A stretch of 60,000 nt of DNA from Schmidtea polychroa. Its lineage: Eukaryota. The notes under the pieces are model-generated. The model did no database searches and was not told the origin of the DNA. It saw only the letters and a program-made list of their open reading frames with translations. Positions 10,078 through 56,627 of this stretch are shown piece by piece. The stretch spans positions 23,562,001 to 23,622,000 of the forward strand of contig CM097885.1 of NCBI GenBank assembly GCA_044892525.1, in the 5' to 3' direction. Each line of letters starts with the position of its first letter. Within the stretch, counting starts at the first letter, position 1. Both the position numbers and the translations under genes were made by a program.

Positions 10078-10601
10078 ATTGATACTTTTGAAAGTTGCAG
10101 AAAGACGGTTTCTCAGCTCAAAGAATTATGAATAAATCTTATTGACACATGCATATATTTTCTCATTTATTTGGTTTTGTTTATTAATACAAACAGAATT
10201 AACTTCATTTTCTGTAGTTTTAATTTTCTGTAGAAAATATTTATTTTTCATTTGTTTAACATACCATATTTGACATAGGTTCTCTAAACATTTTACATAA
10301 AATTTAATTTTATAAACAGAAAAATCTTTTCGTGGTGTCTTAAATTTGCATGTTTAATTGAGGTTTTGTCTAAAAATTTAACATGAATTTCAAAAAAAAG
10401 TTACTGTGGGGAAAACGTTTTGGAAATCTTTTATTCTATTCGAACATTTTTATTAAACAATATTGGATAAGAAATTTACATTATCTATAACTACAAAACA
10501 CACTCAAGTTGGCATCTAGAGCTTATCAGTATTTTCAATCCTCTATATTGTCTCCTTTCATTAACAAGGTCACACTAATTTAAATCATTTTTTAATTATT
10601 A
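10078..10601 (+). repeat. Left copy of a ~520-bp inverted repeat pair
   Basis: Reverse complement of 17782-18305, roughly 95% identical by eye. Confidence 0.9.

Positions 10602-12489: not shown

Positions 12490-12565
<76 letters not shown>
12486..12565. repeat. (TA)n microsatellite
   Basis: Read directly. Other (TA)n runs lie at 13461-13538, ~30258-30281 and 38047-38088. Confidence 0.95.
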
Positions 12566-12568
<3 letters not shown>

Positions 12569-12643
12569 TCGAAAAAGACAGTGCCGAAAATTCGTGAATA
12601 TCCAAAAAACATCGATATCTTCACTGATTCATAATCAAACTTT
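12566..12643 (+). repeat. ~80-bp dispersed repeat abutting (TA)n, possibly a Penelope-like terminus
   Basis: Its reverse complement matches 30282-30360 and partly 27176-27220. It carries CTCGAAAAA-GAC-AGT-GCC-GAAA. Confidence 0.65.
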
Positions 12644-12759
12644 TTAATAAATAAAATGTCAAATGAAAAAAATATATAGCTATGACGTCAGTGTTGCAAT
12701 CAATTAAATAAATTATAAATTAGAATAACAAAATAGATAACAAGAATATTTAATGCTAA

Positions 12760-13280
12760 TATTCGATAATTTTCCGATCCACTGACTTATTTAGATACCT
12801 CAACATATTTTGATAATAGCCATCACAATCTGTGGATGTAATCTCACCAAATGCCATGGTGATCCTATCCTTCAATTGCCATTCATTTACGCATCGATGC
12901 CCCTTAACAATATTTTTCCATTTACTAAAGCAATTCTTAATGGGATTAAGAAATGGACAGTATGGTTGTAGGTATAAAGTCGAAAGACCCTCAAAATTTG
13001 AGTTCCAATTATGATTCCAATTATTATTCCATCTTTATTATGGGAGAAAAAATACCTAGCATTCCGCATTTGTTTCTTAGTTCTGTTAGACAAACTTGAA
13101 AGTTTCGCTTTAACAGCACGACTGCAACAATAGATATGTTTTAGCTTTTTGTGTGTGGAATAGTTGTAATTGCGCGCGTACCAAATTGCGATGTTCCTCT
13201 TTTCCGCCTTGTTGATACTTTGAATCCAACCTAGTCCAAAGTTTAAAACGATTCGATTAGAAATTTTTTGTTCCAACTGA
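12760..13280 (-). pseudogene. Decayed IS630/Tc1-mariner DDE transposase, catalytic domain
   Basis: Minus-strand translation across frameshifts and stops: LD*VGFKVSTRRKRG..FGTRA...KS*NISIVA, then LTELRNKCGMLGIFSPIIKME, then YLQPYCPFLNPIKNCFSKWKNIVKGH...AFGEITSTDCDGYYQNMLRYL. These match the DE-GF, I-MDN and YLPPYSPxLNPIE motifs. Confidence 0.85.
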
Positions 13281-13456
13281 CGGAATCCTTGTAACGCAAT
13301 CGTAACGCAATCGTACGCTCAGTATTGCGAGAAACGGGACGGGGAGCACAGTTTTGATTGTATTCGTCTATTTTGAAACGTTTAATTAAAAACTGTAATT
13401 ATCGTTATTAACATCTCTACATAATTCATTCCAGCAGAATCCTTTCCCTTTGTATC

Positions 13457-13542
<86 letters not shown>

Positions 13543-13546
13543 CAAA

Positions 13547-13586
13547 TAGTAGACTAGTTTCGAGCTATTGGCTCTCATCAGTACTA
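13547..13586 (-). ncRNA. Minimal type I hammerhead ribozyme (Penelope-like class), copy 1
   Basis: Minus strand reads UAGUA-CUGAUGA-GAGC caaua GCUC-GAAA-CUAG-UC-UACUA: full core, 4-bp stem II, palindromic minimal stem III, GUC site and 5-6-bp stem I. Confidence 0.85.
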
Positions 13587-13764
13587 TGCAAGAGACGCAA
13601 AGATTTCCATAAGTTTCTGTGTATAGACGGTGTCTGCAGAGGTAAATATGATTTTTCATACGCCATGTTTACAAGTTTGCAGATATTTTTTATGTGATTT
13701 AGCTAATTTGCAAGTGATGTAATTTCGAGTGTAGCAGGTAAAGTAAATCTTCGCGTCTCCTGCA

Positions 13765-13804
13765 TAGTACTGATGAGAGCCAATAGCTCGAAACTAGTCT
13801 ACTA
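13765..13804 (+). ncRNA. Minimal type I hammerhead ribozyme (Penelope-like class), copy 2
   Basis: TAGTA (13765) CTGATGA (13770-13776) GAGC-CAATA-GCTC GAAA (13790-13793) CTAG TC TACTA. Cleavage is predicted after the GUC at 13799. Confidence 0.85.
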
Positions 13805-15922
13805 GACATCCGTAAAATAATATTATATATATATCGAAATTATTATTAGTTACAGAAGTAATTTAATATTTTTCAGAGTAATCAAATAGACATTACATAT
13901 CCACCCAATAACATGCGTTTCTCATCACTAAAAATGTGTAAAATATTGCACTCTCACAATTAAATGACGGGAACGAAATAATATTTGCAGTTATTAATAA
14001 ATATTTCAATTAGCACACAGTTCAATGTGGATATTTATTATGTAATGTCCCACAGTTTCTCCAAAAATCCAAATTACTAAAACTATTACAAATTCGATTC
14101 ATATAAACAAAACATTGACTAGTAATTAAATCTTTAACTTTAAATGCCAATGAAAAAAAAATTTAAAGGTAATATTTTTTAAAATTATTTTCAAAATTAA
14201 TTAGTCCGTACTGAAGGAGAGCATTTATTGGGGATTATTTTTTTCATTTGAAAGAAATAGTTAATGATAAATAATAAAATAATATATAAAAATAAATAAA
14301 AGTCTATTTTGAAATTAGTGTTAAATATAAAACAAAATATTCAGTTATAATTTATAAAATATAATAAATAATAATATTAACCTTTTTCGAAAGACTGACG
14401 GACATGTAAGGTTTTTATTCTACACCACGCAGGCCTGTCGCCGTACTTTTGCGATTCTTCCTCAAAATAATCATTATCACTTTCACAAAGCAACATTTCA
14501 ATTTCCTTATCACTTAGGAGTAAAGAAGCTTTGATGTTTTCGGTTAAAACAAAAAGTTCACAATAAAGAGAATAATCAATTTATTATAGTAAATATGCAA
14601 TGCTGCCTCTAAAACAAATCATGCCATATACAAAATTTTCCAAAAGCAAAGAAAGAGAAAAAGAAAGACGTGGGGAAAATAAACAATTTCAAAACGAATT
14701 CTGACAAGTAATTATGAAGAGGAGAATATAAAAAGTTTTAGGATCAGACAATAATAAAAAAAATTTAAATCTTCATTATCCGAAAATTACATGGGTTTGT
14801 TTTCAGGTTTGACTGCAAAATCATAGCCAAATCTTTTTTAATTTCCATACAACTGTCAAGAGAATAAGAATATGGAAGTGAGAATGTAATTAAATTAAAT
14901 TAATTTAAATATTTGACAATTTAATAAAATATTTTTTGTTGTTGATTGATTTTGTTTGTTGAATTTATTATTCATATATTGCTACACTAAAAAATTTCTC
15001 ATGAAGATTTATTCAAACAATATTATCAGAAAATGATGTTTGGAATAAAAAAAACATTACGAACATTTGGAAATTTTTATCATGGATACAATAAATACCA
15101 AAAGCAATGTACTTAATTAGTGACCCATAACGAAGTTTGCAGTAAATAAATGTAGACTACCATGTGCCAAACACTGATTGACATTTTAAAATATTATATT
15201 AATCATTTTTAAAAATAATTTAACAAATAATTACTAATTTTAAAATAAATTTTTAATTAAAATTTTAAAATATCTTTTAAAAATTATTAAAAATGTATTA
15301 TAAATAATAATGATATTTATTTTTATATATTTATTTTTAAATTATTGTAACTTATTCTGCTGAATTCTTGACAGAAAAAGTAACTTTTTCCTTATCCAAA
15401 GTCTATCTTTGAAACAGTTGATATCATCAAACTGGTCCCGTTCTAAATCTACCTTCAAATAAAATATAAATTATTAATTGTTTATAAAATGAATTATGAA
15501 AACTTATAAATGCTAAATCAAATTCCAGAGATTTGTAGACTTGACTTTATTGTAAATTTTAGACAAAATGATTTTAAAATTATTTTGATTGCGCAAAAGA
15601 TAGAGTTCCATGAGAAACATGAATCCTAAATGGAGAACTGTAATCCTATTCTATTTTAAAGGATTTGAATTAAAATTTAAAATTTAATTAATAAATTGAA
15701 AATAACTTTTAAGTTAAAATTATTAAAAAGCTAAAAGAAAACGAAGTGTAGGGCAAGCTCGGTTTTTGAGTATATTATACAGTTGAAAGAGTACCATTTG
15801 TAATCCAATATCGTCGTAGGTTAACAGAGCAAAAGAAAGATTTAAAAAATAAAGTGAGTATAAATTTCAACCGTATTTCTTTTCTTTTACCTGACATTTC
15901 TTTTATATCTTATATCTTTTAA

Positions 15923-17781: not shown

Positions 17782-18305
17782 TAATAATTAAAAAATGATT
17801 TATATTAGTGTGACCTTGTTAATGAAAGGAGACAATATAGAGGATTGAAAATACTGATAAGCTCTAGATGCCAACTTGAGTGTGTTTTGTAGTTATAGAT
17901 AATGTAAATTTCTTATCCAATAGTGTTTAATAAAAATGTTTGAAGAGAGCAGAAGGTTTCCAAAACTTTCTCCCCATAGTAACTTTTTTTTGAAATTCAT
18001 GTTAAATTTTTAGACAAAACCTCCATTAAACATGCAAATTTAAGACACCACGAAAAGATTTTTCGGTTTATAAAATTAAATTTTATGTAAAATGTTTAGA
18101 GAACCTATGTCAAATATGGTATGTAAAACAAATAAAAAAATGAATATTTTCTACAGAAAATTAAAACTACAAAAAATGAAGTTAATTCTGTTTGTATTAA
18201 TAAACAAAACCAAATAAATGAGAAAATATATGCATGTGTCAATAAGATTTATTCATAATTCTTTGAGCTGAGAAACCGTCTTTCTGCAACTTTCAAAAGT
18301 ATTAA
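17782..18305 (-). repeat. Right copy of the ~520-bp inverted repeat pair
   Basis: Reverse complement of 10078-10601. Confidence 0.9.
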
Positions 18306-21300
18306 TTATTTTTGATTGTTTTCAATAAACGTCTTTTTTCAATAAAATAATTGACAAAAATTATTGGAAAAAAATCTATATAGTTTTAGTCCTGGAGTTG
18401 ATGAAAATTTTCCTTGAAAAAGGATGTTTAAATATTGAAAACAAGCAAAAAATATCCAAAATATCAAAGATTAGGAAAACTTGCCAAACTTAATTAATAT
18501 GGCGCATTTGCATTCAGAATATTTTAAATTTTATAATATTTTAATATTAAAATTATTGACAAAATTTTAATTATTTACTTATTTTCTCTTTATATTCACT
18601 GGATTTTATTTGTAACCGTTTTGCAATTTCATGATAACCTGATGAAATTTATGATGTTATCATCCCCTCATTTTTGTGTCTTAATTTACCTTTAACTCTT
18701 CGGTTTGCTTATAATGTGTTGGAAGGATAACATTTTAACTTTGAAATTTTGACTCTGGACGTTGTGATAATAATGATTAGAAATAAAAACTTTTCTTTTA
18801 ACAAAAATAGAAATTATTATTTTAATTAAACCATTTATTACAAATCAAAAATACCTATACAATATTAATTGTAATTACCTTATATTTTGATCTTTTTACA
18901 TGTATGACTTGATTAAAACAAATTCAAACAAGTTCCCTATTTTTGACCTTAAATTGATCTACTTCCTTGTTATCACGGTACTCGGTGTTGTTTGGTTTTT
19001 ACTTTCAGGGGATTTGTAAAAGACGAAAACCCACCCATTTGCTTTGTGGGACAAAGCTTAATGAAGACGCTACCTGGGATGTAACATACAGTTTAGCAAA
19101 AGACAATGAACGTACTATTGCCGCAAATCGAACTAGATAGGTTACCACTCATTGTCCTTTTTTAATCTTACATAATATTTCTTCACTCTTTCCACTTTAC
19201 AAGGCTTCAATGTCGGAAAGTTGTTTATAGGAAATAATTTAAAACTTTCTATTCTGTGAAGAGCCCAAAATAATTTATTAGGGATTTCTCATTAAATTTC
19301 TAATTAATATTTTTTATATAAATAAAAGCTTTGATAGATCATGTAAAATTTTTCGATATTTAAAATATTTGACAAATCAATTACTAATTTAATTTAATTT
19401 TTTTTTTATTTTTGTCCCATACAGCACGTGATAATTAGACGAAATTAGATATTAAACAATCCAGATATATCAAGTTAGATTATCAATTGAATTAAAATAA
19501 CTTACAGCTTACCCCCCCCCCCCCCCCAGCCCACACACACAATTGTTTTGCATGTGACTTTACAATAAACCTTTTAAGCCGATTATTGGCAATTAAAAAT
19601 TCTACCATATTTTCTTCATGTAAGAAAAATACAAGTTTAAACTTGACTATTGCATATAATAAACATGGTTTACACTTTAAACACACACCATTCGTCCTCT
19701 GGATAAAATCAAAGTCAAATAAACCTTATACGAAAATATACGATCCTTGAACTGAAAGGGGTCAGTGTATGATGTCAAATTGGAAATGGTAGAGTGAAAT
19801 GCTGTGAGTTCTATTTTTAAAATATTATAAACCTGATTGAATAAACAATGAAACCTTTATAAATATTTTTACAAATTCTCTTAATAATAGGCGATAACAA
19901 TGAAAAATCTTTTTATTATTCTTCGAATTTCTCACATAAATTTACATAATAACGTATTTTTTTTCAAAATAAAATGCGCATTATATGCTGAAGTCAATTA
20001 AAACAAAGATTTTATTCAACTTTAAAAAATATATTTTTTACTGATATTAAAAGCTGGTATTGTTATTTTTTTGCAGAATTAAAAATATAATTCTTCTTGA
20101 TTAAATATTATCAAATAAAGAATTAGTAAATTATTTTTTATTTCTTTTTAGTTTCTTATGATTAAGTATTCCCATCTATTTATTTGTTTAATTTAATATA
20201 TGTCGATGCAAGCTAATAAATGTTGGATAGATTTTCAATAAATTTATTTCATTAAAACAAATGCAATAAAAAAATCAATAAAATCCAATCAAAAAATTCC
20301 TTTAATCATTTGAGTGATTTTATCGAAAAAAACTCTTCATAGATATTTCTGACAATGAAATTGTACGATTGAAACAAAATATTATCTAATAAATGACATT
20401 TTAAAAGCTAATTATTTAAAGAATCAAAGGGTTTTTCTACTTTCAGTCTTTTTACATAAAAAAACAATCAGCAGACAGAATTACTAATCATTTTATCTTG
20501 TGTTTTGATTCGAATAAAAATTCATAGGATTTGTTTTAATAAATGATCACTGGAATTCTGATGATTAATTTTTCATAAAATCTGATTTCAATGTTTAAAA
20601 GAAAAAAAATTAAATATTTAATTGATTAATTATCAATTTGATTAATGAATAAATTAAGAAATCAATAACTGAAAATGTATAAATCTTTTGCAATTTCAAT
20701 TCATTTTAAACAAAAAAATTTTTTTTGTTGAATAATAAAACGGTTGAATAATTTCATTTAAAATAATAAAAATAAAAATAGAATTTTAGTAATTATGTAA
20801 ATCCCGGAAATATTATTTACAAAGTAAATCAAATGAATTATCAAATTTTTAATCTTATTTAATAAATATTGAATTGAACAATTCACATTTAATGATCAAA
20901 CTAATTGCTAGTTTTCGTAAAACATATTTTTCAATTAATTTATTTGTTTTAATTGATCGTCAACTAGTTAATGAATATTTTATTTCTTTACATGGTAATT
21001 AGGAATTAATTAATAAATAAAAAAGTTAGTACATTATATATAAATTTAATTTAATTAATAAGAGTTTATACATTAAATTTAACAGACTATCCAGTCAACA
21101 TTCTCATAGAAAATAAAAATAAAATATAAATTTGTTAACAACTTTTATTAAAATATATTATATAAATTAAATTTATTTTAAATAAAATTGGCCAGTGACA
21201 AAAAGATTTTCAATATTTTGCTAATAACGTTATCGTAAATAAATGCAAAAAATGTAAATTAAAGAATTTAAATTTAAATATTTTAAAATTTTAAAATGAA

Positions 21301-25391: not shown

Positions 25392-26745
25392 TAGATTCCC
25401 AAAGTGGTCCATATGAAACTCCAAGGGTCGATTTCAACTTACTGTGAGTCCATGTCAGCGAGAAAAGTAAATTTGAGTCTACATAAGCGGACTCTATATA
25501 TTTTACATGTTGTTATACCAGTCGTAACGCACCGCGCACAAATATGCAGTAAGTAAAAGTGGTTCAAACTTCAAACACTGTTTATTTATTTTCTGAGTTT
25601 TGAGAAGAAAAAAGGTTGGAAAAAATCGTTCAAATTTATAAAAATAGGCACATGCCAAAAATGAATTAAAATTATATTATTTAAGAGTGCATAAGAAAAG
25701 TTTTATATATATTACAGTTAAAGTATAAAATTAGACAATGTACACATAAACAAGACAATGTATAAACTTTCTATTAAAGTACATAATGTCATTCTAGTAT
25801 GTATGTTGCATTACTGCACACTTTATCTAGACATAGTGTGCATTTAATTATTAATATTATTACTATTATAACATTAACATTATCTAGTTAATGCATACAT
25901 TGTCTAAGTTTATGCTTTAGCTGTAACATATATTTGTAGTCACTTTGATTGCATAAAATAAATTTGAATTGTTTTGTCTAATCATATTTAAATAGCTTCA
26001 TTTTTGTCGACAAATAATTTATATTCCAAACTTATTTTTGTACAACACGAATTTAAAAAATGCCACTTTAAAACCTACCAAGCTGGAGGATCAACTGAGA
26101 AGGTGTCGCCCTGATAAAATAAGTAAAGATCTGGCATACTTTAAAACAACTTCAAAAAAGAACCACGGGGGTCCGTATATTCATTTTAATGTCAAAAATA
26201 GGTTATAATAGTTTGCTAGAGTCTGACAATATCTCAAAATCAGCAAAAACAAAAAGGTTTCATGGAATTGGGAAATTGATTTTGCCCGTCACTGAAGACA
26301 TTTTTAAAGATTCTTCTATGCAAGCCTGTTGGGGCGTTTGCAATTCATCAACAGCATTTAGTAGATAAAAATCTAATTTCTAAATTGTATCAATCTCTTC
26401 AATTCGTCAAAACAGAGTAAAAATTCGTAGCAATGCGTGAAATTCTAGGTTTTAAGCAGTTCTGTCTCAATTAAATACATTGGCTCTTTTAAGACGATTT
26501 AAGTGTTTGTGGACATTTAATTAAATAAAAACTAAACAATGAATTTAATGACGCAAAACATTATTCCCAGTCCCCAAATTTGTCATTGTCAAGACTAAGC
26601 CTCACTAATTTGAAGTCAAATATTGAAAGATTTGCTATCAAAGCATTTGAAGTTAATAAATTAAAAAAATTCAATATTAGCAGACACGGGGGTCTACAGA
26701 AAACAGAAAAAGTGGTCTACGGAACCGAAAGGTTTGAGAATCTAG
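25392..26745 (+). mobile_element. Decayed hAT (Charlie-like) element
   Basis: Eroded ends TTCCCAAAGTGGTCC... and ...GGTCTACGG...GTTTGAGAA. Relic C-terminal coding RLSLTNLKSNIERFA near 26590-26640. Boundaries are approximate. Confidence 0.5.
25715..25923. mobile_element. TA-flanked MITE (Tc1/mariner-type) nested in the hAT relic
   Basis: TA|CAGTTAAAGTATAAAATTAGACAATGTA... pairs with ...TACATTGTCTAAGTTTATGCTTTAGCTG|TA, an imperfect TIR of about 45 bp. Confidence 0.7.
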
Positions 26746-27862
26746 TTACTAAATAATAATTAATTTTATTAATAATCTGTTAAAATACATGAAATGTCAT
26801 AATTTTTCATCCAACTGTGAAATATTAAATAAAAAATAAAACTGAAAAATAAAGTTCCGGTTTGATGACAAGAAAAAACAAACTCCTTTGCTCATGTACA
26901 TTAGTTAAAATGGTAATATTTAGGTTTTAATTTTTTGTAATTTTTTCAATATTGTTTCGTGTAAATTATCCGGTGTTCTTTAATTCGGGTTTTTTCTCTT
27001 CTCTCCACCCCCTTTATAATCACATGTTATTATATGGTAAGACATTACCAAAAAACAATTTAAAATAATATTATAAAAATTGTGCGGTTGACAATAAATA
27101 ATTAAATAACAAGTTAAATTAAATTAAATTAAGACATGGATGGAAATAATTATTGATGATGTAAGTATTTATTAAAAAGCTTGAAGACTATGAATCAGTA
27201 AATATATCGATGTTTTTGATATGTAACTATTATTATTCGGAAATTCATCGTGTTGTTTTATTAAATGAGTCAATGAAAAATTGTATTTAAATAAATTTTA
27301 ATCAACAAGTTTGGTCTTATTCCTAACAGAGATATTAACCCTTTTCTTCATTTTGAAACGAAATTTTGCACTTTAAGAGAATCTCAAATAAGATTTGAAC
27401 TTTACGAGAATGTAAAATAATTTATTTATGTATTCTCCTGATAATTAATAAAGACAAATTAACATAAAAATATCTTTCTTAATTTTTTTTTCAACATTGT
27501 CCTCACATTTCTACGTGATATAATTGTCTTCTAAACAAAAGTTTTAAAGTAATTTTATAGAAAACTCTTATTTCTTTATTTATTTGTTTGTGATAAAGAT
27601 TTTGTTAGAAGTTCAATTAAAACCAGACGAAAATAAGCAAAAACTAACAAATCCAGTCGTTTAAAACAAACCGTGATCCTAATTGTTATATCCAACAGAG
27701 TAGGCATTAAACGACCACTATTTTCTATATTGAAATTGTCTAAAATAATGGATTGAAATGGATTGAAGCATACCTTAAGTGCAACATTCCTGGCCGATAA
27801 GAAGAAACCTCTAATCTTGTAACACTTGTGAAAGAAATCCTGGGCTTGATAATGGCATTTTT

Positions 27863-32970: not shown

Positions 32971-35658
32971 ATGAAACAACTTGAGGGTAAAATTATATTA
33001 TTTCATTTAATATGTGGATACTTGCCTTCAATTATTAGTACCCAGGAAATAACATTCCATATGATGGAAGAAAATAAAAGAGGATTAATTCTTGGAAATT
33101 TAAACTATTTCATTTCTAGTAAATTGAAAACGGATCCGAAAATCACAGAATTTCATGTGAGCAGTAAATATTTTGAGATCGAGAACCAAACGAAGAACGT
33201 CCAAATGATCTCATCGATAGATCTCGACACGATTTGTTCCACAGATTCCGAATGTTGTGACAAAGAGAAATGTTTGATCGAAACAAAAGTTGTTGTACAG
33301 GAGAATAGTCAATATAGATCATCATTTTTACTGAAAGTCGAAGTAAAAGATCTTGACGATAATTTCCCTTTATTTCAAGACGAAAAACAAATAATAAAAC
33401 TATCGGAAAAGATTTCAATGAACACATCAATTTCAATTGACGGAGCGATGGATAAAGACTTTTCAAAAATAAATCAAAAGAAAAACTATCAGTTCTTCGA
33501 CGAGAGTATGACCTTTCAACTTGTTGTCCATCAATATGATCCAGATATTCTATCAATTATGGTAATGAGGAGTTTAGATTATGAATTGAAACAGATCTAT
33601 TTTTGTAAACTAAAGGTCTGTGATAAAACTTATCAGAATTGTGTTAGGAAATCGGTAATAGTGCAAGTTGTCGATGAAAATGACAATGAACCAATTTTTG
33701 AAGAAAAGAAATATTTGGTGAAAATTCCTGAAAGTTATCCGATTGGAAAGAAAATTCTCAAGGTCATAGCAAAAGACGCAGACAGTTCGTCGTATAATAA
33801 AACCTTTTATGGATTCCAAAGCGATTATAATGTTAAATCAATTTTTAATATAGAAAAGGAAAGTGGAGTGATAAGCTTGAAGCAAAGCCTTTCTATTAAT
33901 AAAAAGACTCGATATTCATTTACAGTTTATGCAATAGACGCTTTGTCGGTGACATTCAAAAAGGATTATGCTGATGTCGAAATTGATATTGAAGATGTAA
34001 ATGATAATTATCCCATAATATCCCTTCTCCATGGATTTATGCCCGACCCATATTCAATTAAAATTGATGAAAATACACCTCCAAAAACATTGTTCTCTAT
34101 CCATGTTTCCGATAAAGACACCGGCATCAATGCAATTGTAAATTGTTCCCTTCGTGTTCGAAAAAATGATCTATTAGAAATGATTAAGGCCGACCTTGAA
34201 ATATATCAAATCCGCACTGTTAGATCTTTTGATTATGAAACCCTACAAATGATCAAGGCGGAAATTCTGTGCATTGATTTCGGAAGTCCACCTCTTTTAT
34301 CGAGAAAGGCGATTAAAATTATTATAGTCGACGTAAACGAATTTGAACCATCTATAAGAAATAATGTTGAGGAGTTTTCGTTGAAAGAAAACATACCCGA
34401 AAATAAATTTGTCATGACTATTGACGCCACGGATAGAGACAAAGGTGCAATTTTGAGATACTCATTGGATGAAGTAGGAAGGATTTATTTCACCATAAAT
34501 TCCAGAACCGGGGATATTATTACGTCGAATGTGACACTAGACAAGGAAATTAACGACAGTATAAAATTCAAAGTCTTCATCACTGACAGTTTAATAAATC
34601 CGCATACAGCTACAGTCTTTGTCACTGTCACAATTACAGATCAAAATGACAATGGTCCTCAGTTTATTCACACATTACCCTTTACCATCCAAGAAGGATT
34701 GCCTTTTTATTCTAAATTATCAACAAGAATTGAAGCTAAAGATGCTGACAAAGATGAGATCAATCATTCTATCATTTTTCGATTACTTCATACTTATAAT
34801 TACAAAATGGAACTACTTCACGAAAAGATTTTTGATGTTACTTCAAAAGGTGAAATCGAAACTGTTGTAACAATAGATCGGGAAAAGGACAGTAATTATA
34901 CTTTGACAATTTTAGCACAAGACAAAGGAAACCCTCCAATATCAACTTCAACAAATATAACAATAACAGTGATAGACGTGAATGACAATGGCCCTGTTTG
35001 GGTTTCTCCATCTTCATTGAATTCATCAGAACCAGAAGCCAGATTCAACATTTCTAAAGAGGCAGCAATCGGATCTACCGTAACACAACTGAAAGCATTC
35101 GATCAAGATCAAGGTGATTTTGGAAAAGTAAGTTATGTTATTATGTCCACCGAGTCTCATTATCAAGGAGAACAATTCTTAACTTTAAATGAAACATCGG
35201 GAATATTAAGCATTAATCAGCATCCTTTATCATATGGTAAAACACTTCTTAAAATAAGTGCCCATGACCATGGTCATCCTCCATTAAAGAATTATGCTAC
35301 CCTAATTATAAATGTTCAACAGCTAAATGACAATCTATTCAGTGGATTGAATATGGCAATAATTATCGGAATGCTCTCTATCACTGCCCTTATCTCAATA
35401 TTCCTCATAATTGCTATCTTCTTTATTCGACGTAGCCCAAATCCTCCCAGACATTATAGAAATTCTAGTCAAAACATCAGAAAAGAGTGTGAAAGCAATT
35501 TGAAATCATCCTACAAAGATCTTGTAGATTATAATGATAAAAAAGAATCGGTCTTTACAGATAATGACTGTCATCATGTATATTATCGTAATGGAAATAT
35601 AGATTCCAACCTTGCTATGTATTCTCAATCTCCAGTAGAGGTCAGTGCCTTATTTTAA
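32971..35658 (+). CDS. Protocadherin with 7 extracellular cadherin repeats (delta-1-like architecture), large ectodomain exon. The true exon probably ends at 35640.
   Basis: 895-aa ORF: N-terminal signal peptide; Cys-containing EC1; linker motifs DLDDNFP, DENDNEP, DVNDNYP, DVNEFEP, DQNDNGP, DVNDNGP; AxDxD and LDYE/DRE motifs; DxGxPP; TM LNMAIIIGMLSITALISIFLIIAIFFI followed by RR. A donor-like GAG|GTCAGT lies at 35640/35641. Confidence 0.96.
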   Translation: MKQLEGKIILFHLICGYLPSIISTQEITFHMMEENKRGLILGNLNYFISSKLKTDPKITEFHVSSKYFEIENQTKNVQMISSIDLDTICSTDSECCDKEKCLIETKVVVQENSQYRSSFLLKVEVKDLDDNFPLFQDEKQIIKLSEKISMNTSISIDGAMDKDFSKINQKKNYQFFDESMTFQLVVHQYDPDILSIMVMRSLDYELKQIYFCKLKVCDKTYQNCVRKSVIVQVVDENDNEPIFEEKKYLVKIPESYPIGKKILKVIAKDADSSSYNKTFYGFQSDYNVKSIFNIEKESGVISLKQSLSINKKTRYSFTVYAIDALSVTFKKDYADVEIDIEDVNDNYPIISLLHGFMPDPYSIKIDENTPPKTLFSIHVSDKDTGINAIVNCSLRVRKNDLLEMIKADLEIYQIRTVRSFDYETLQMIKAEILCIDFGSPPLLSRKAIKIIIVDVNEFEPSIRNNVEEFSLKENIPENKFVMTIDATDRDKGAILRYSLDEVGRIYFTINSRTGDIITSNVTLDKEINDSIKFKVFITDSLINPHTATVFVTVTITDQNDNGPQFIHTLPFTIQEGLPFYSKLSTRIEAKDADKDEINHSIIFRLLHTYNYKMELLHEKIFDVTSKGEIETVVTIDREKDSNYTLTILAQDKGNPPISTSTNITITVIDVNDNGPVWVSPSSLNSSEPEARFNISKEAAIGSTVTQLKAFDQDQGDFGKVSYVIMSTESHYQGEQFLTLNETSGILSINQHPLSYGKTLLKISAHDHGHPPLKNYATLIINVQQLNDNLFSGLNMAIIIGMLSITALISIFLIIAIFFIRRSPNPPRHYRNSSQNIRKECESNLKSSYKDLVDYNDKKESVFTDNDCHHVYYRNGNIDSNLAMYSQSPVEVSALF

Positions 35659-37220: not shown

Positions 37221-37415
37221 TGATGATTTCTTGGTAGCAGCATTTATTATCTAAAACAATAAAATGATAATTTAAGCCTTTTGCTGCAAATAATGTATTT
37301 AATGAAAAGATTTTCGACTATAAGATAGATTGACAAGGACTATCTTATAGTCGAAAATTTTTCATTAAATACATTATTTGCAGTAAAAGGCTTAAATTAT
37401 CATTTTATTGTTTTA
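37221..37415 (-). repeat. Rearranged copy of the 15991-16135 unit forming a ~77-bp-arm palindrome
   Basis: Arms 37252-37328 and 37340-37415, loop ATTGACAAGGA. Confidence 0.9.
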
Positions 37416-46581: not shown

Positions 46582-47353
46582 CAGCGGTTCTCAAAGTGGG
46601 GTCCACGGTCCCCTAGGGGACCGCGACGAACTAACGCATATTTATTTTTTTAAATCATTTAAAAAAAACATCAAAAAATAATTTAATCATTTCTGTTATT
46701 AAAAATCAATTCAACATAAGCCCACTTACGGGGTAAAACTGCGTTTTGTGTCTCCAATATTTTGCGTGCATGTTGAGGTTGTATGCTAATTTGTGACGTC
46801 ATTGTTTTAAATTGTTTTTAAACACCATCGGTTTATCACTAACCCATTTGAAGTATCCATTAGTGACCTGCCCTCGGACGACAATTTAGTTCAGGAACAA
46901 CTTATTGATTTAATAAACGATGAGGGTGCAAAACATGTTTTACGTGGAACTTGCTGTAGTGACTTTTGGATTGAAATGGCACTGTCCTATCCTGATGTTG
47001 CAAAGATGGCTCTAAAAGTCCTCACTCCATTTGCAACCACCTATGAGTGTGAGTCGGCTTTTTCTACACTACTTACAATTAAAACAAAAGCAAGAAATAG
47101 ATTATGTGCAACAAATGATATGCGAGTTGCACTGGCCAAGACAAAGCCAAACTTAGAAGCTCTAGTTCTGGAAAAACGCCTGCATCCGTCGCATTAAAAT
47201 TGTTATTTAACTTTTACGATGTAATATTTTCTCAATATATATGTTTTATTTGCTATACCTTCTTTATTTTTTATTATTAAGGGTCCGCAAGCTATCTAAC
47301 AATTTTTAAAGGGACCGCCTCGCAGAAAATTTCAAAGAATTTGAGAACCGCTG
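46582..47353 (+). mobile_element. Internally deleted hAT (Buster/Charlie) transposon, 772 bp
   Basis: Perfect 14-bp TIR CAGCGGTTCTCAAA and perfect 8-bp TSD CAATAGAA (46574-46581, 47354-47361). Confidence 0.95.
46829..47197 (+). pseudogene. hAT transposase C-terminal dimerisation domain fragment
   Basis: Open frame ITNPF...EQLIDL...DFW...YPDVAKMALKVLTPFATTYECESAFSTL..IKTKARNRL...DMRVAL....PNLEALV...RLHPSH*. Confidence 0.92.
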
Positions 47354-47377: not shown

Positions 47378-48702
47378 CAGGGGTCAGCAACATCTTGGCT
47401 ATGTGGGGCCGGATTGCGTTTTTTGAAACTTTAGATGAAGTATTACATCCTTTTTCTTATAGATCCATAGCAGACATTTTTCGTGACTGACAATTTTAAA
47501 TTGTTGATGATGTAAAAAAAATCATTTTAGGAAATTTTTAATTTCAAATATCTGTAATAATGTCATCAAGAATTGGGACAATTGACAGAATGATCACAAA
47601 ATGTCACTTACCTAGATTGTTAGAATTACTTTTGAGGTGAAAAATATTAATAAATGGCTTTTTGAATAATAGTTATTTATTTTAGAAAGCATTTTAACGT
47701 GTCCAATATCCCTAATGCTCCTTTATTTTCCTCCGGCTGGAAAATTGAACTTGCGGTCCCACGACTGAGAACTGGACTAAATATTCATTCTCTAGATTCT
47801 AGTATATTAACTCGGGCTTCTTTAGTCAGAGCCACATAAGAAGAAGAACCATGTCTTGTATTAAAATGTCTTGAAATGTTATTTTCTTTACGCACGGAAA
47901 CATTTTCATTACATAACAAGCACAAAGGCTTATTATTATACATTGTAAAATAATATTTCCATTTCCATTCCTCATTAAAGCTTCTATATTGAGAATTCTT
48001 CTTTCTTTTCTTACCTTCACTACTCATTTCAGATTTCACACAATTATTTAATTTTAAAAAAATCGTACTTATATTAATATTATTCAAAAGTTTAAATATG
48101 TCACCTTCAAGACAACCCTCAGGAAACAAAATTAAGCTAAAAATACGTAGATCAAGTTAAATATTTTTGAATTTTCACTATTTTCCCATGGTTTTTTGAG
48201 AAATTTTTCTAAGTTTTTATGAAATTGAACTGATTTTATCGATTTTTTCACAAATTTTCTAGGTTTTTATGTAGATCAAGTTACTTTAAACATGTGTCAC
48301 CTCCAGGACACTATATAAAATATGTAGTTCGCAACTATATAGTTTTAAAATAAGTAGGTCAAGTTAAAAATAACTAGGTCAAGTTACTTTAAACACCTCC
48401 AGGACACTATATAAAATATGTAGGTCACGACTATAAAAACTTCACCCAAAAAGTAATTAAATATGAATGCAAAATAACATGTTAAAACATTATTAAAATT
48501 ATAAAAAATTTGCAACTAAAATTTTTGTAATTTCAAAATTTACAAATTTCTGATCAACCGAATTTATAATTTTCGTTACGTTAAAACATTATTAAAAAAT
48601 AAAAAAAAATTAAAATTAAAATTTTAACTTTTTTATCAAATATTCTGGATCGAAGAGTGGGCCAAATTGAAAGCTCCCGTGGGCCATAGTTCCCCATCAC
48701 TG
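47378..48702 (-). mobile_element. Internally deleted hAT (SPIN/GTF2IRD2-like) element
   Basis: Ends CAGGGGTCAGCAAC / GTTCCCCATCACTG with GGGCC subterminal motifs. Flanks GTTTAGAT / CTCTAGAA fit the NTCTAGAN target preference. Internal direct repeats CACCTCCAGGACACTATATAAAATATGTAG near 48298 and 48394. Confidence 0.8.
47785..48030 (-). pseudogene. hAT transposase N-terminal zinc-finger (BED-like) fragment
   Basis: MSSEGKKRK..QYRSFNEEWKWKYYF..YNNKPLCLLCNENVSVRKENNISRHFNTRH, typical of SPIN/GTF2IRD2-type N-termini. Confidence 0.88.
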
Positions 48703-55664: not shown

Positions 55665-55737
<73 letters not shown>

Positions 55738-56627
55738 GAATAATTCCAAGAGCGATTATCAAAATTTTATTTTTCGCCTCTACAGGGCCGCGTGGATCAG
55801 TTTTGAATAATAACATTTTGTCCATTTCAATGTTATGTCCAATGTCAGATGTTAATCGAGCTGCTTCCATTTGTGCACGACAAACTTGCGATCGACAATC
55901 AGGGATCATACCAATCATAACACCTCCAGTACTTTCAGTAATATTAAACAATCTCGTAGCTGAACTCGTCTCAATATATTTTATCGTCATATGCCATTTT
56001 ATCCAGTAGCGGTTTCCGTCGAAGCACACGCGCGATTTCAAACTTCGACTTACCCAAATGTTTTAATTCGGACAACTGAGAAAATCTGTTGGATAATTCT
56101 TCAATTAAATAATTTCTGATTTCCGTTTTGCAAACAAATCGATTTGAAAAATCCGACATAGCATTATTCAATATTATTTTCTTACGAATACATAATACAA
56201 TATCGTTGTTTTTATTGACGAACTTATCTGTGAATTTAGACGACTCGATCCCATGATGGCAACAACTGTGAAAGTTCCGTGACAATCGATACAATTAATT
56301 TATCGAGAACTTTTCCTTGGAAACCAGTATAAATGAGATCGCCTTTCACAAAGTTAATATTTTGAAAAGATGTAAGAGAATTTCTGATCACAACCTACAT
56401 CACATCGCAAAATCATACTTCCACCGATTTCGATTCAAAAAGTCCTCCAACAATCGCCGTTTTAAACAAAAACCAATTTAAAACCTAATTTCATTCTCCC
56501 AAAAAATAATCGAATTAAAATTACAATCAAAAACTTACTCACAAAGACCAACCGAATTTCCATTGCTCGCGTCTGTGTGCGCACACCAACAATAATCGGT
56601 CTAACCAGACCGCGCACACAGACGCGA
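54410..56627. mobile_element. Unclassified putative DNA element with self-palindromic inverted ends and decayed coding sequence
   Basis: The motif TCGCGTCTGTGTG / CACACAGACGCGA occurs at 54410, 54462, 56567 and 56615. Frameshifted minus-strand ORFs at 55733-56420. Confidence 0.5.

Follow-up and report, generated by a model that had tools for sequence, protein, structure and literature searches.

Genomic context of the cassette

At the centre of this analysis is a cassette of two inverted arms, each with a hammerhead ribozyme motif, at 13547-13606 (minus strand) and 13745-13804 (plus strand). The window around it, by which we mean the whole stretch of 60,000 nucleotides that was analyzed, is AT-rich (19-33% G+C in 2-kb bins) and contains many (AAT)n and (TA)n tracts. 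A single-exon gene at 32971-35658 on the plus strand encodes an 895-aa protocadherin-like protein (Cadherin, E 8.4e-61, in five stretches), for which a search of a protein collection gave no exact match. Given the AT-rich repeats and this cadherin gene, the window is animal genome; a sigma-70 scan gave 1 site against 1.0 expected and is irrelevant to such DNA.

Remnants of DNA transposons are found near the cassette and further downstream. A broken Tc1/mariner-like piece (12566-13460) sits between two long TA tracts and includes a DDE_3 fragment on the minus strand (12759-13034, E 1.3e-4, below the cut-off) just left of the TA tract that starts at 13461. The left end of this piece (12544-12672) has repeats at 82-89% identity near 27166, 30271 and 43299, and no inverted counterpart of this end turned up ahead of the TA tract at 13461. 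A hAT C-terminal dimerisation domain (46811-47197, plus strand, E 6e-10) and a Spin-doc zinc finger (47785-48156, minus strand, E 7e-9) are regarded as pieces of hAT-type transposons on opposite strands. The DDE_3 fragment and these pieces near 47-48 kb are the only mobile-element Pfam matches in the 234 of 249 window frames scanned. Rows for Takusan, zf-C2H2_7, Phospholamban and KinB_sensor fell below the cut-off and were set aside as chance.

Layout of the cassette

The two arms are reverse complements of each other at 58 of 60 positions, with differences at 13591/13760 and 13599/13752 only, and they enclose a spacer of 138 bp (13607-13744). This agrees with an earlier reading of the letters (the sequence-only reading), which had described 60-bp inverted repeats with 2 mismatches and a spacer of about 138 bp. 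The same reading placed the cassette between (TA)n tracts. That is correct for the left side, where a perfect (TA)39 tract of 78 nt (13461-13538) abuts the left end and is the probable insertion target, but not for the right side, where a short (TA)5 run of 11 nt (13824-13834) lies 19 nt away from the arm.

The outer ends of the two copies are unequal. On the right there is an extra segment of at most 19 nt on the plus strand (13805-13823), which may be host flank. Gapped alignment of the outer ends yields a 5-nt gap followed by a 5-nt match, and fits two readings: in one the right copy has lost 5 nt and goes over to a short tail; in the other its end is at 13804 and host DNA lies beyond. Besides the TA runs, no target-site duplication was found at the cassette ends, and no palindrome was seen at the inner junction. 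Within the 60-kb window there is neither a second copy of the cassette nor a direct repeat of the unit in a head-to-tail tandem.

Two divergent type I hammerheads

Both arms hold CUGAUGA, a helix II of GAGC/GCUC closed by the loop CAAUA, GAAA, ACUAGU and GUC; at the level of sequence, the complete core, stem II, palindromic stem III and cleavage site that had been claimed for each arm are thus present. The cores (13581-13552 on the minus strand and 13770-13799 on the plus strand) diverge, with their starts 189 bp apart, and the predicted cuts fall at 13552/13551 on the left and 13799/13800 on the right. Both copies have the features of a type I core: CUGANGA, GAAA and UH, helices I to III, and an opening at helix I.

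The copies differ in completeness. On the left the hammerhead has its full-length form (13539-13596, minus strand; active-like fold -11.5 kcal/mol), with a helix I of 6 bp, an internal loop and a distal part of 5 bp, a helix II of 4 bp, and a helix III of 2 bp with a UA loop. It extends to 13539, which closes the distal helix GUCUC/GGGAC; such a distal helix beyond the internal loop is the form that lets loop 1 make contact with loop 2. The right hammerhead (13755-13804, plus strand; active-like fold -7.3 kcal/mol) lacks those letters and has a helix I of 5 bp without a distal helix. Two earlier statements therefore need adjustment. Describing the ribozymes as intact holds for their sequence, but the copies are not equal, since the right one has no distal helix. 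Likewise, the arm mismatches lie outside the minimal core, but 13591/13760 falls within the internal loop that helix I has in its extended form.

The core pattern occurs twice in the window, even when 3 mismatches are allowed, and not at all in each of 100 shuffles; a relaxed hammerhead descriptor run over the whole window finds the same two loci and no others. At the Rfam gathering scores the whole window has 0 matches. Ranked by E-value, however, the covariance models that had been proposed as a check do recognize both copies below those scores: the left copy is matched by Hammerhead_HH9 (13529-13600, minus strand, 32.4 bits, E 3.7e-6, against a gathering score of 52), the right copy by Hammerhead_1 (13764-13805, plus strand, 21.7 bits, E 0.016, against a gathering score of 34). 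Compared with these two models (RF02275 and RF00163) all core positions agree and the left copy is a full-length match including the extended helix I, whereas the scores stay under the gathering thresholds and helix III has no real loop. Further Rfam rows (miRNA, RUF21, pestivirus, U4 and RAGATH) were weak, with E-values of 0.066-8.1, lay mostly on the TA tract and were rejected as chance.

The sequence-only reading had called both ribozymes minimal hammerheads. As defined by Cervera and De la Pena 2014 (PMC4209133), a min-HHR has a helix II of 7-8 bp, an unpaired base between positions 9 and 10.1, a short helix I and an ill-defined loop 1, and a helix II of this length is the form of many metazoan PLEs (Penelope-like elements). 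Here helix II measures 4 bp, the extra base is missing, and helix I has 6 bp and is extended distally in the left copy. Its helix lengths of 6, 4 and 2 bp and its palindromic loop of 2 nt make the motif, judged by its sequence, a canonical metazoan type I hammerhead with a short helix III, not a min-HHR. According to the same source, this type requires a second copy to form helix III.

An ATG within the core was considered as a possible ORF start, as described for Anolis Poseidon (PMC11167929). It was rejected: on the right copy the frame runs for 10 codons only, and on the left copy it runs into the TA tract.

Relatives in metagenomes and covariation

Scanning metagenomes with a degenerate core pattern yielded three loci (L001-L003), while pattern scans gave 0 matches in viral contigs and 0 in prokaryote genomes. 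In an alignment of five sequences (the two window copies and the three loci) 92.7% of 55 cells are paired, against 20-36% when the pairing partners are slid. Compensatory changes relative to the metagenome loci are seen in 4 of the 5 helix I pairs, which lie outside the search pattern, and in 1 of the 4 helix II pairs. Loop 3 is palindromic in all five sequences (TA or CG); helix I of L002 is poorly paired. These comparisons lend modest support to the idea that the hammerhead motif is a selected structure, modest because they represent only about three independent sequence families.

The similarity is confined to the ribozyme. None of the three loci shares the spacer, and none has an inverted partner, with the limit that L002 offers only about 210 nt upstream. 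L001 (185-214, minus strand) and L003 (140-169, minus strand) carry the same family of hammerheads with a short helix III in AT-rich DNA. Their common stretch measures about 55 nt, and a common GTGCCTGTTTCTCG motif follows about 100 nt downstream. On the contig of the L002 hammerhead we also observed a 630-bp fold-back element (228-855) that is 81% self-complementary.

Predicted folding of the transcripts

A transcript reading through the whole cassette is predicted to form a long hairpin (-135.4 kcal/mol, z -16.1, 44 bp perfect) in which the probability of helix II is 0.0 in both directions. The proposal that the transcript could fold into a 60-bp hairpin blocking the ribozyme is thereby upheld as a prediction. 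In either read-through direction the antisense arm is made first. It had also been proposed that a transcript of either strand carries an antisense copy; this applies to read-through from the flank, but not to an RNA that starts in the spacer. For spacer-started RNAs the predicted probability of helix II amounts to 0.90 and 0.96, and helix I is predicted to close with a probability of 0.006 on the plus strand and 0.26 on the minus strand.

Helix III seems too short to stand alone, and the ACUAGU homoduplex has a predicted energy of -4.8 kcal/mol. Two spacer-started RNAs could, in this model, pair through ACUAGU, which is in line with the cleavage as dimers that the sequence-only reading mentioned for hammerheads with a palindromic stem III. 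Published tests of PLE hammerheads report poor cleavage in vitro (PMC11167929, PMC4209133). A read-through hairpin follows from any inverted pair, so its presence is no sign of design. Moreover, the insertion looks young, as its arms differ at only 2 of 60 positions, and intact cores would then need no selection.

Polarity of the spacer

Folding of the spacer differs between the strands: relative to shuffled sequences the plus strand has a z of -2.15 (9 of 300 shuffles as good) and the minus strand a z of 0.11 (154 of 300). The plus strand of the spacer also contains two donor-like AG|GTAAA sites (13642 and 13738), compared with a window-wide density of 0.13 per kb, and YAG occurs on this strand at 13682 and at 13767, the latter within the 5' strand of the right helix I. 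In the Penelope of Drosophila virilis the pLTR intron extends as far as the 5' end of helix I (PMC4209133), and an intron in the 5'-UTR may be common among PLEs (PMC8557442). It may be that the splice-like sites ahead of helix I mark a retained pLTR intron.

Taken together, plus-strand folding and splice-like sites weakly suggest, on a comparison made post hoc, that the spacer is part of the copy on the right. The cassette would then consist of a long plus copy of about 200 nt and an inverted minus copy of 68 nt, the spacer probably being the upstream part of the long copy (a body resembling that of a pLTR or a retrozyme).

Comparison with published systems

Insertions of PLEs are strongly truncated at the 5' end, where an adjacent, inverted and likewise 5'-truncated copy is frequently present (Craig et al. 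2021, PMC8557442). As a result inverted repeats flank the unit, optionally with a tail of 30-40 bp at one end. Microsatellites such as (TA)n are preferred targets and hide target-site duplications. Head-to-head is the commonest inverted arrangement of PLEs, and in the Penelopes of Adineta palindromes are present at the inner junction (Arkhipova et al. 2013, PMC3846280). The cassette shares with these truncated units the head-to-head copy, the flanking inverted repeats, the unequal ends, the (TA)n target, the lack of a discernible target-site duplication and a hammerhead near the 3' end. It differs from them in that no ORF is left, its possible tail does not exceed 19 nt (against 30-40), and the junction shows no palindrome. 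As to enzymology, the Poseidon protein of Anolis cuts AT-rich DNA on both strands and extends both, and its reverse transcription starts downstream of the hammerhead, at two nearby internal sites (PMC11167929).

The layout of an inverted pair has already been described in other animals. In Schistosoma mansoni dual hammerheads lie on opposite strands 100-700 bp apart and were interpreted as truncated PLEs, and a truncated PLE of Cotesia has a second hammerhead on the opposite strand at its 5' end (PMC4209133). The cassette resembles the Schistosoma pairs in that its hammerheads lie on opposite strands, in distance and in the lack of coding sequence in between. The ribozymes are of another kind, however: those of Schistosoma are min-HHRs with an extra base before helix II and no or a tiny helix III, whereas the cassette has classical hammerheads of 6/4/2 bp with a palindromic 2-nt loop. 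That paper lists one PLE hammerhead from Schmidtea, with a sequence different from those in the cassette. In our search of open-licence literature no paper came up that deals directly with planarian PLE hammerheads, with head-to-head pairs of hammerheads in planarians or with the exact sequence studied here, and the core 15-mer is absent from one supplementary file of PMC8557442.

Classical hammerheads are mostly assigned to tandem retrozymes (Cervera and De la Pena 2020, PMC7229834). With non-LTR retrozymes the cassette has in common a classical type I ribozyme, the non-coding nature, a long copy whose size, about 200-225 nt, falls in the range of 170-400 nt, and modest self-pairing of the sense strand; moreover, monomers exist and these retrozymes are thought to derive from PLE pLTRs. 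They are, however, organized as head-to-tail tandems and give circular RNAs, whereas the cassette comprises one unit plus an inverted fragment. Within the window it lacks the tandem that defines such a retrozyme, but it could be a solo monomer. The available text of PMC7229834 makes no mention of inverted retrozyme pairs ('inverted' and 'opposite' both occur 0 times). Retrozymes have been argued to be non-autonomous derivatives of pLTRs, of which solo monomers exist (Li, Clavereau and Pollet 2026, bioRxiv 10.64898/2026.07.22.740005).

A probable truncated, inverted insertion of PLE type

The explanation we prefer, at a probability of roughly 70%, is that the cassette is a by-product of a PLE-type insertion, with a long plus copy (about 13607-13810) and a short inverted minus copy. 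The template would have been an end module with a hammerhead, either a PLE's pLTR or a retrozyme monomer derived from a PLE. After nicking of the (TA)n tract by the endonuclease of the element, reverse transcription would have produced a heavily 5'-truncated plus copy of about 200 nt (13607 to about 13805-13823). A second, shorter copy of 68 nt (13606-13539) would then have been joined to the 5' end of the plus copy in inverted orientation, head to head, so that the left arm probably represents a short, 5'-truncated copy. Because both copies kept their 3' end, each has a hammerhead and the two point outwards. In the parent element the ribozyme's task would be the processing of RNA multimers, for which it would probably dimerize through the ACUAGU palindrome. 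In the cassette it would be a passenger, and as the hairpin of a read-through RNA is predicted to destroy the ribozyme fold, the locus is most likely inert. The parent element, which copy is the longer one, the order of events and this inertness are what we infer from the layout.

Several observations speak for the PLE-type insertion: the 78-nt TA tract directly at the left end, the differing outer ends, the diverging cores, the covariation of the ribozyme helices, the plus-strand polarity of the spacer and the predicted loss of helix II in the read-through hairpin. On the same side stands the Pfam result, in which no RT or GIY-YIG domain was detected in 234 of the 249 window frames (stop-to-stop, at least 45 aa; the 15 frames overlapping the cadherin ORF were left out, and low-complexity frames as well as frames over one short downstream stretch are excluded from the count). 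Counting against it, the window contains no parent element or second copy, there is no target-site duplication besides the TA runs, the putative tail (19 nt or less) falls short of the 30-40 bp reported for PLEs, the inner junction has no palindrome, and none of the three metagenome motifs has an inverted partner.

The classical hammerhead type, with its 4-bp helix II and loop-loop contacts, shifts the choice of template towards a retrozyme. By analogy in ribozyme type and unit size a retrozyme monomer is a possible template, and PLE machinery is the likely agent in either case. In structure the cassette works like an end module of a PLE or a retrozyme, and it is assigned to no named PLE family. 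The earlier proposal of a coding-free PLE derivative or retrozyme-like piece is therefore supported. The idea of an inverted cassette built for a purpose is not supported, given that its geometry is a published routine outcome of PLE insertion and that its outer ends are unequal.

On this most likely explanation the locus is one more young footprint of PLE-type retrotransposition, and as such matters little. It can be of use as a seed for finding the parent family, and for testing dimeric cleavage and antisense blocking. The combination of a classical, retrozyme-type ribozyme with a PLE-type inverted insertion is notable in itself; if the parent proves to be a retrozyme, it would give direct structural support for the movement of retrozymes by PLE enzymes.

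Alternative explanations

It is also conceivable, though unlikely, that the whole cassette of 270-290 bp forms a mobile family of its own, a non-autonomous fold-back element. Such an element could spread as one RNA copied by PLE enzymes, or in MITE-like fashion by cut-and-paste with a Tc1/mariner-type transposase, the arms serving as TIRs. Its size and shape are indeed MITE-like, the arms start and finish with TA as in a Tc1/mariner target duplication, and the DDE_3 and hAT remnants show that DNA transposons are present in the window. However, the terminal TA is part of helix I, and the left distal helix reaches 8 nt past the arm to 13539, which suggests that the element does not end at that TA. 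No second copy occurs in the 60 kb. Furthermore, a read-through RNA could not cleave in its predicted fold, and it is therefore hard to see how selection would keep the ribozymes.

Somewhat less probable still is a single hammerhead insertion that was later duplicated in inverted orientation by a template switch during replication or repair near (TA)n, a route in which no PLE-specific step is involved. The long TA tracts and other palindromic stretches in the window would suit such an event, as would the left neighbour that resembles a broken Tc1-type piece. Yet what was duplicated coincides almost exactly with the ribozyme end, and the distal helix I letters of the shorter copy are absent from the longer one, so the shorter copy was not simply copied from the present right arm. 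In addition, the published PLE route gives this layout without extra steps.

We are a little more doubtful again about a functional, selected RNA switch, in which the hairpin feeds small-RNA silencing of the parent family and RNAs from the spacer cleave as an ACUAGU dimer. Predicted folding permits both states, both cores are undamaged, and candidate bidirectional promoters have been described in the pLTRs of Adineta (PMC3846280). Both states, however, arise automatically in any inverted pair, and a young insertion needs no selection. The predicted closure of helix I in spacer-started RNA is low (0.006 and 0.26, as given above), and the weak cleavage of PLE hammerheads in vitro is a further argument against the switch. 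Even more doubtful, by a small step, is the fuller version of a multicopy, self-regulating unit with a bidirectional promoter in the spacer, hammerheads that complete each other in trans and silencing by small RNAs fed from the hairpin. If true, the cassette would stand beside tandem retrozymes as their inverted, two-strand counterpart, and the in vivo role of PLE hammerheads would become open to direct testing.

A fold-back chimera made by the assembly at the TA tract is very improbable: inverted structures of PLEs do trouble assemblies (PMC8557442), but the two arms are not identical, with 2 mismatches and unequal outer ends, and 6 sequencing runs from 2 studies contain 0.59-0.84 of 90 words sampled from the cassette and right flank, a sample that is no test of the junctions and in which the best run may be the source of the window itself. 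The share is lower in study P2 (0.59-0.61) than in the other study (0.79-0.84), which could reflect an empty site or plain divergence. Among the runs holding cassette words no RNA runs are listed.

Some further structures in the window may be mentioned. A 525-bp repeat, 96% identical and inverted, occurs at 10078-10601 and 17782-18306, 7.2 kb apart, and encloses the cassette region. A proteasome-subunit fragment on the minus strand (55733-56294, E 3.5e-5) is apparently split over two frames and is possibly a pseudogene or a spliced gene. Finally, three stretches are palindromic in themselves, with 69% (25705-25933), 93% (37252-37415) and 71% (18309-18451) identity to their own reverse complement, and these are possibly fold-back elements or MITEs.
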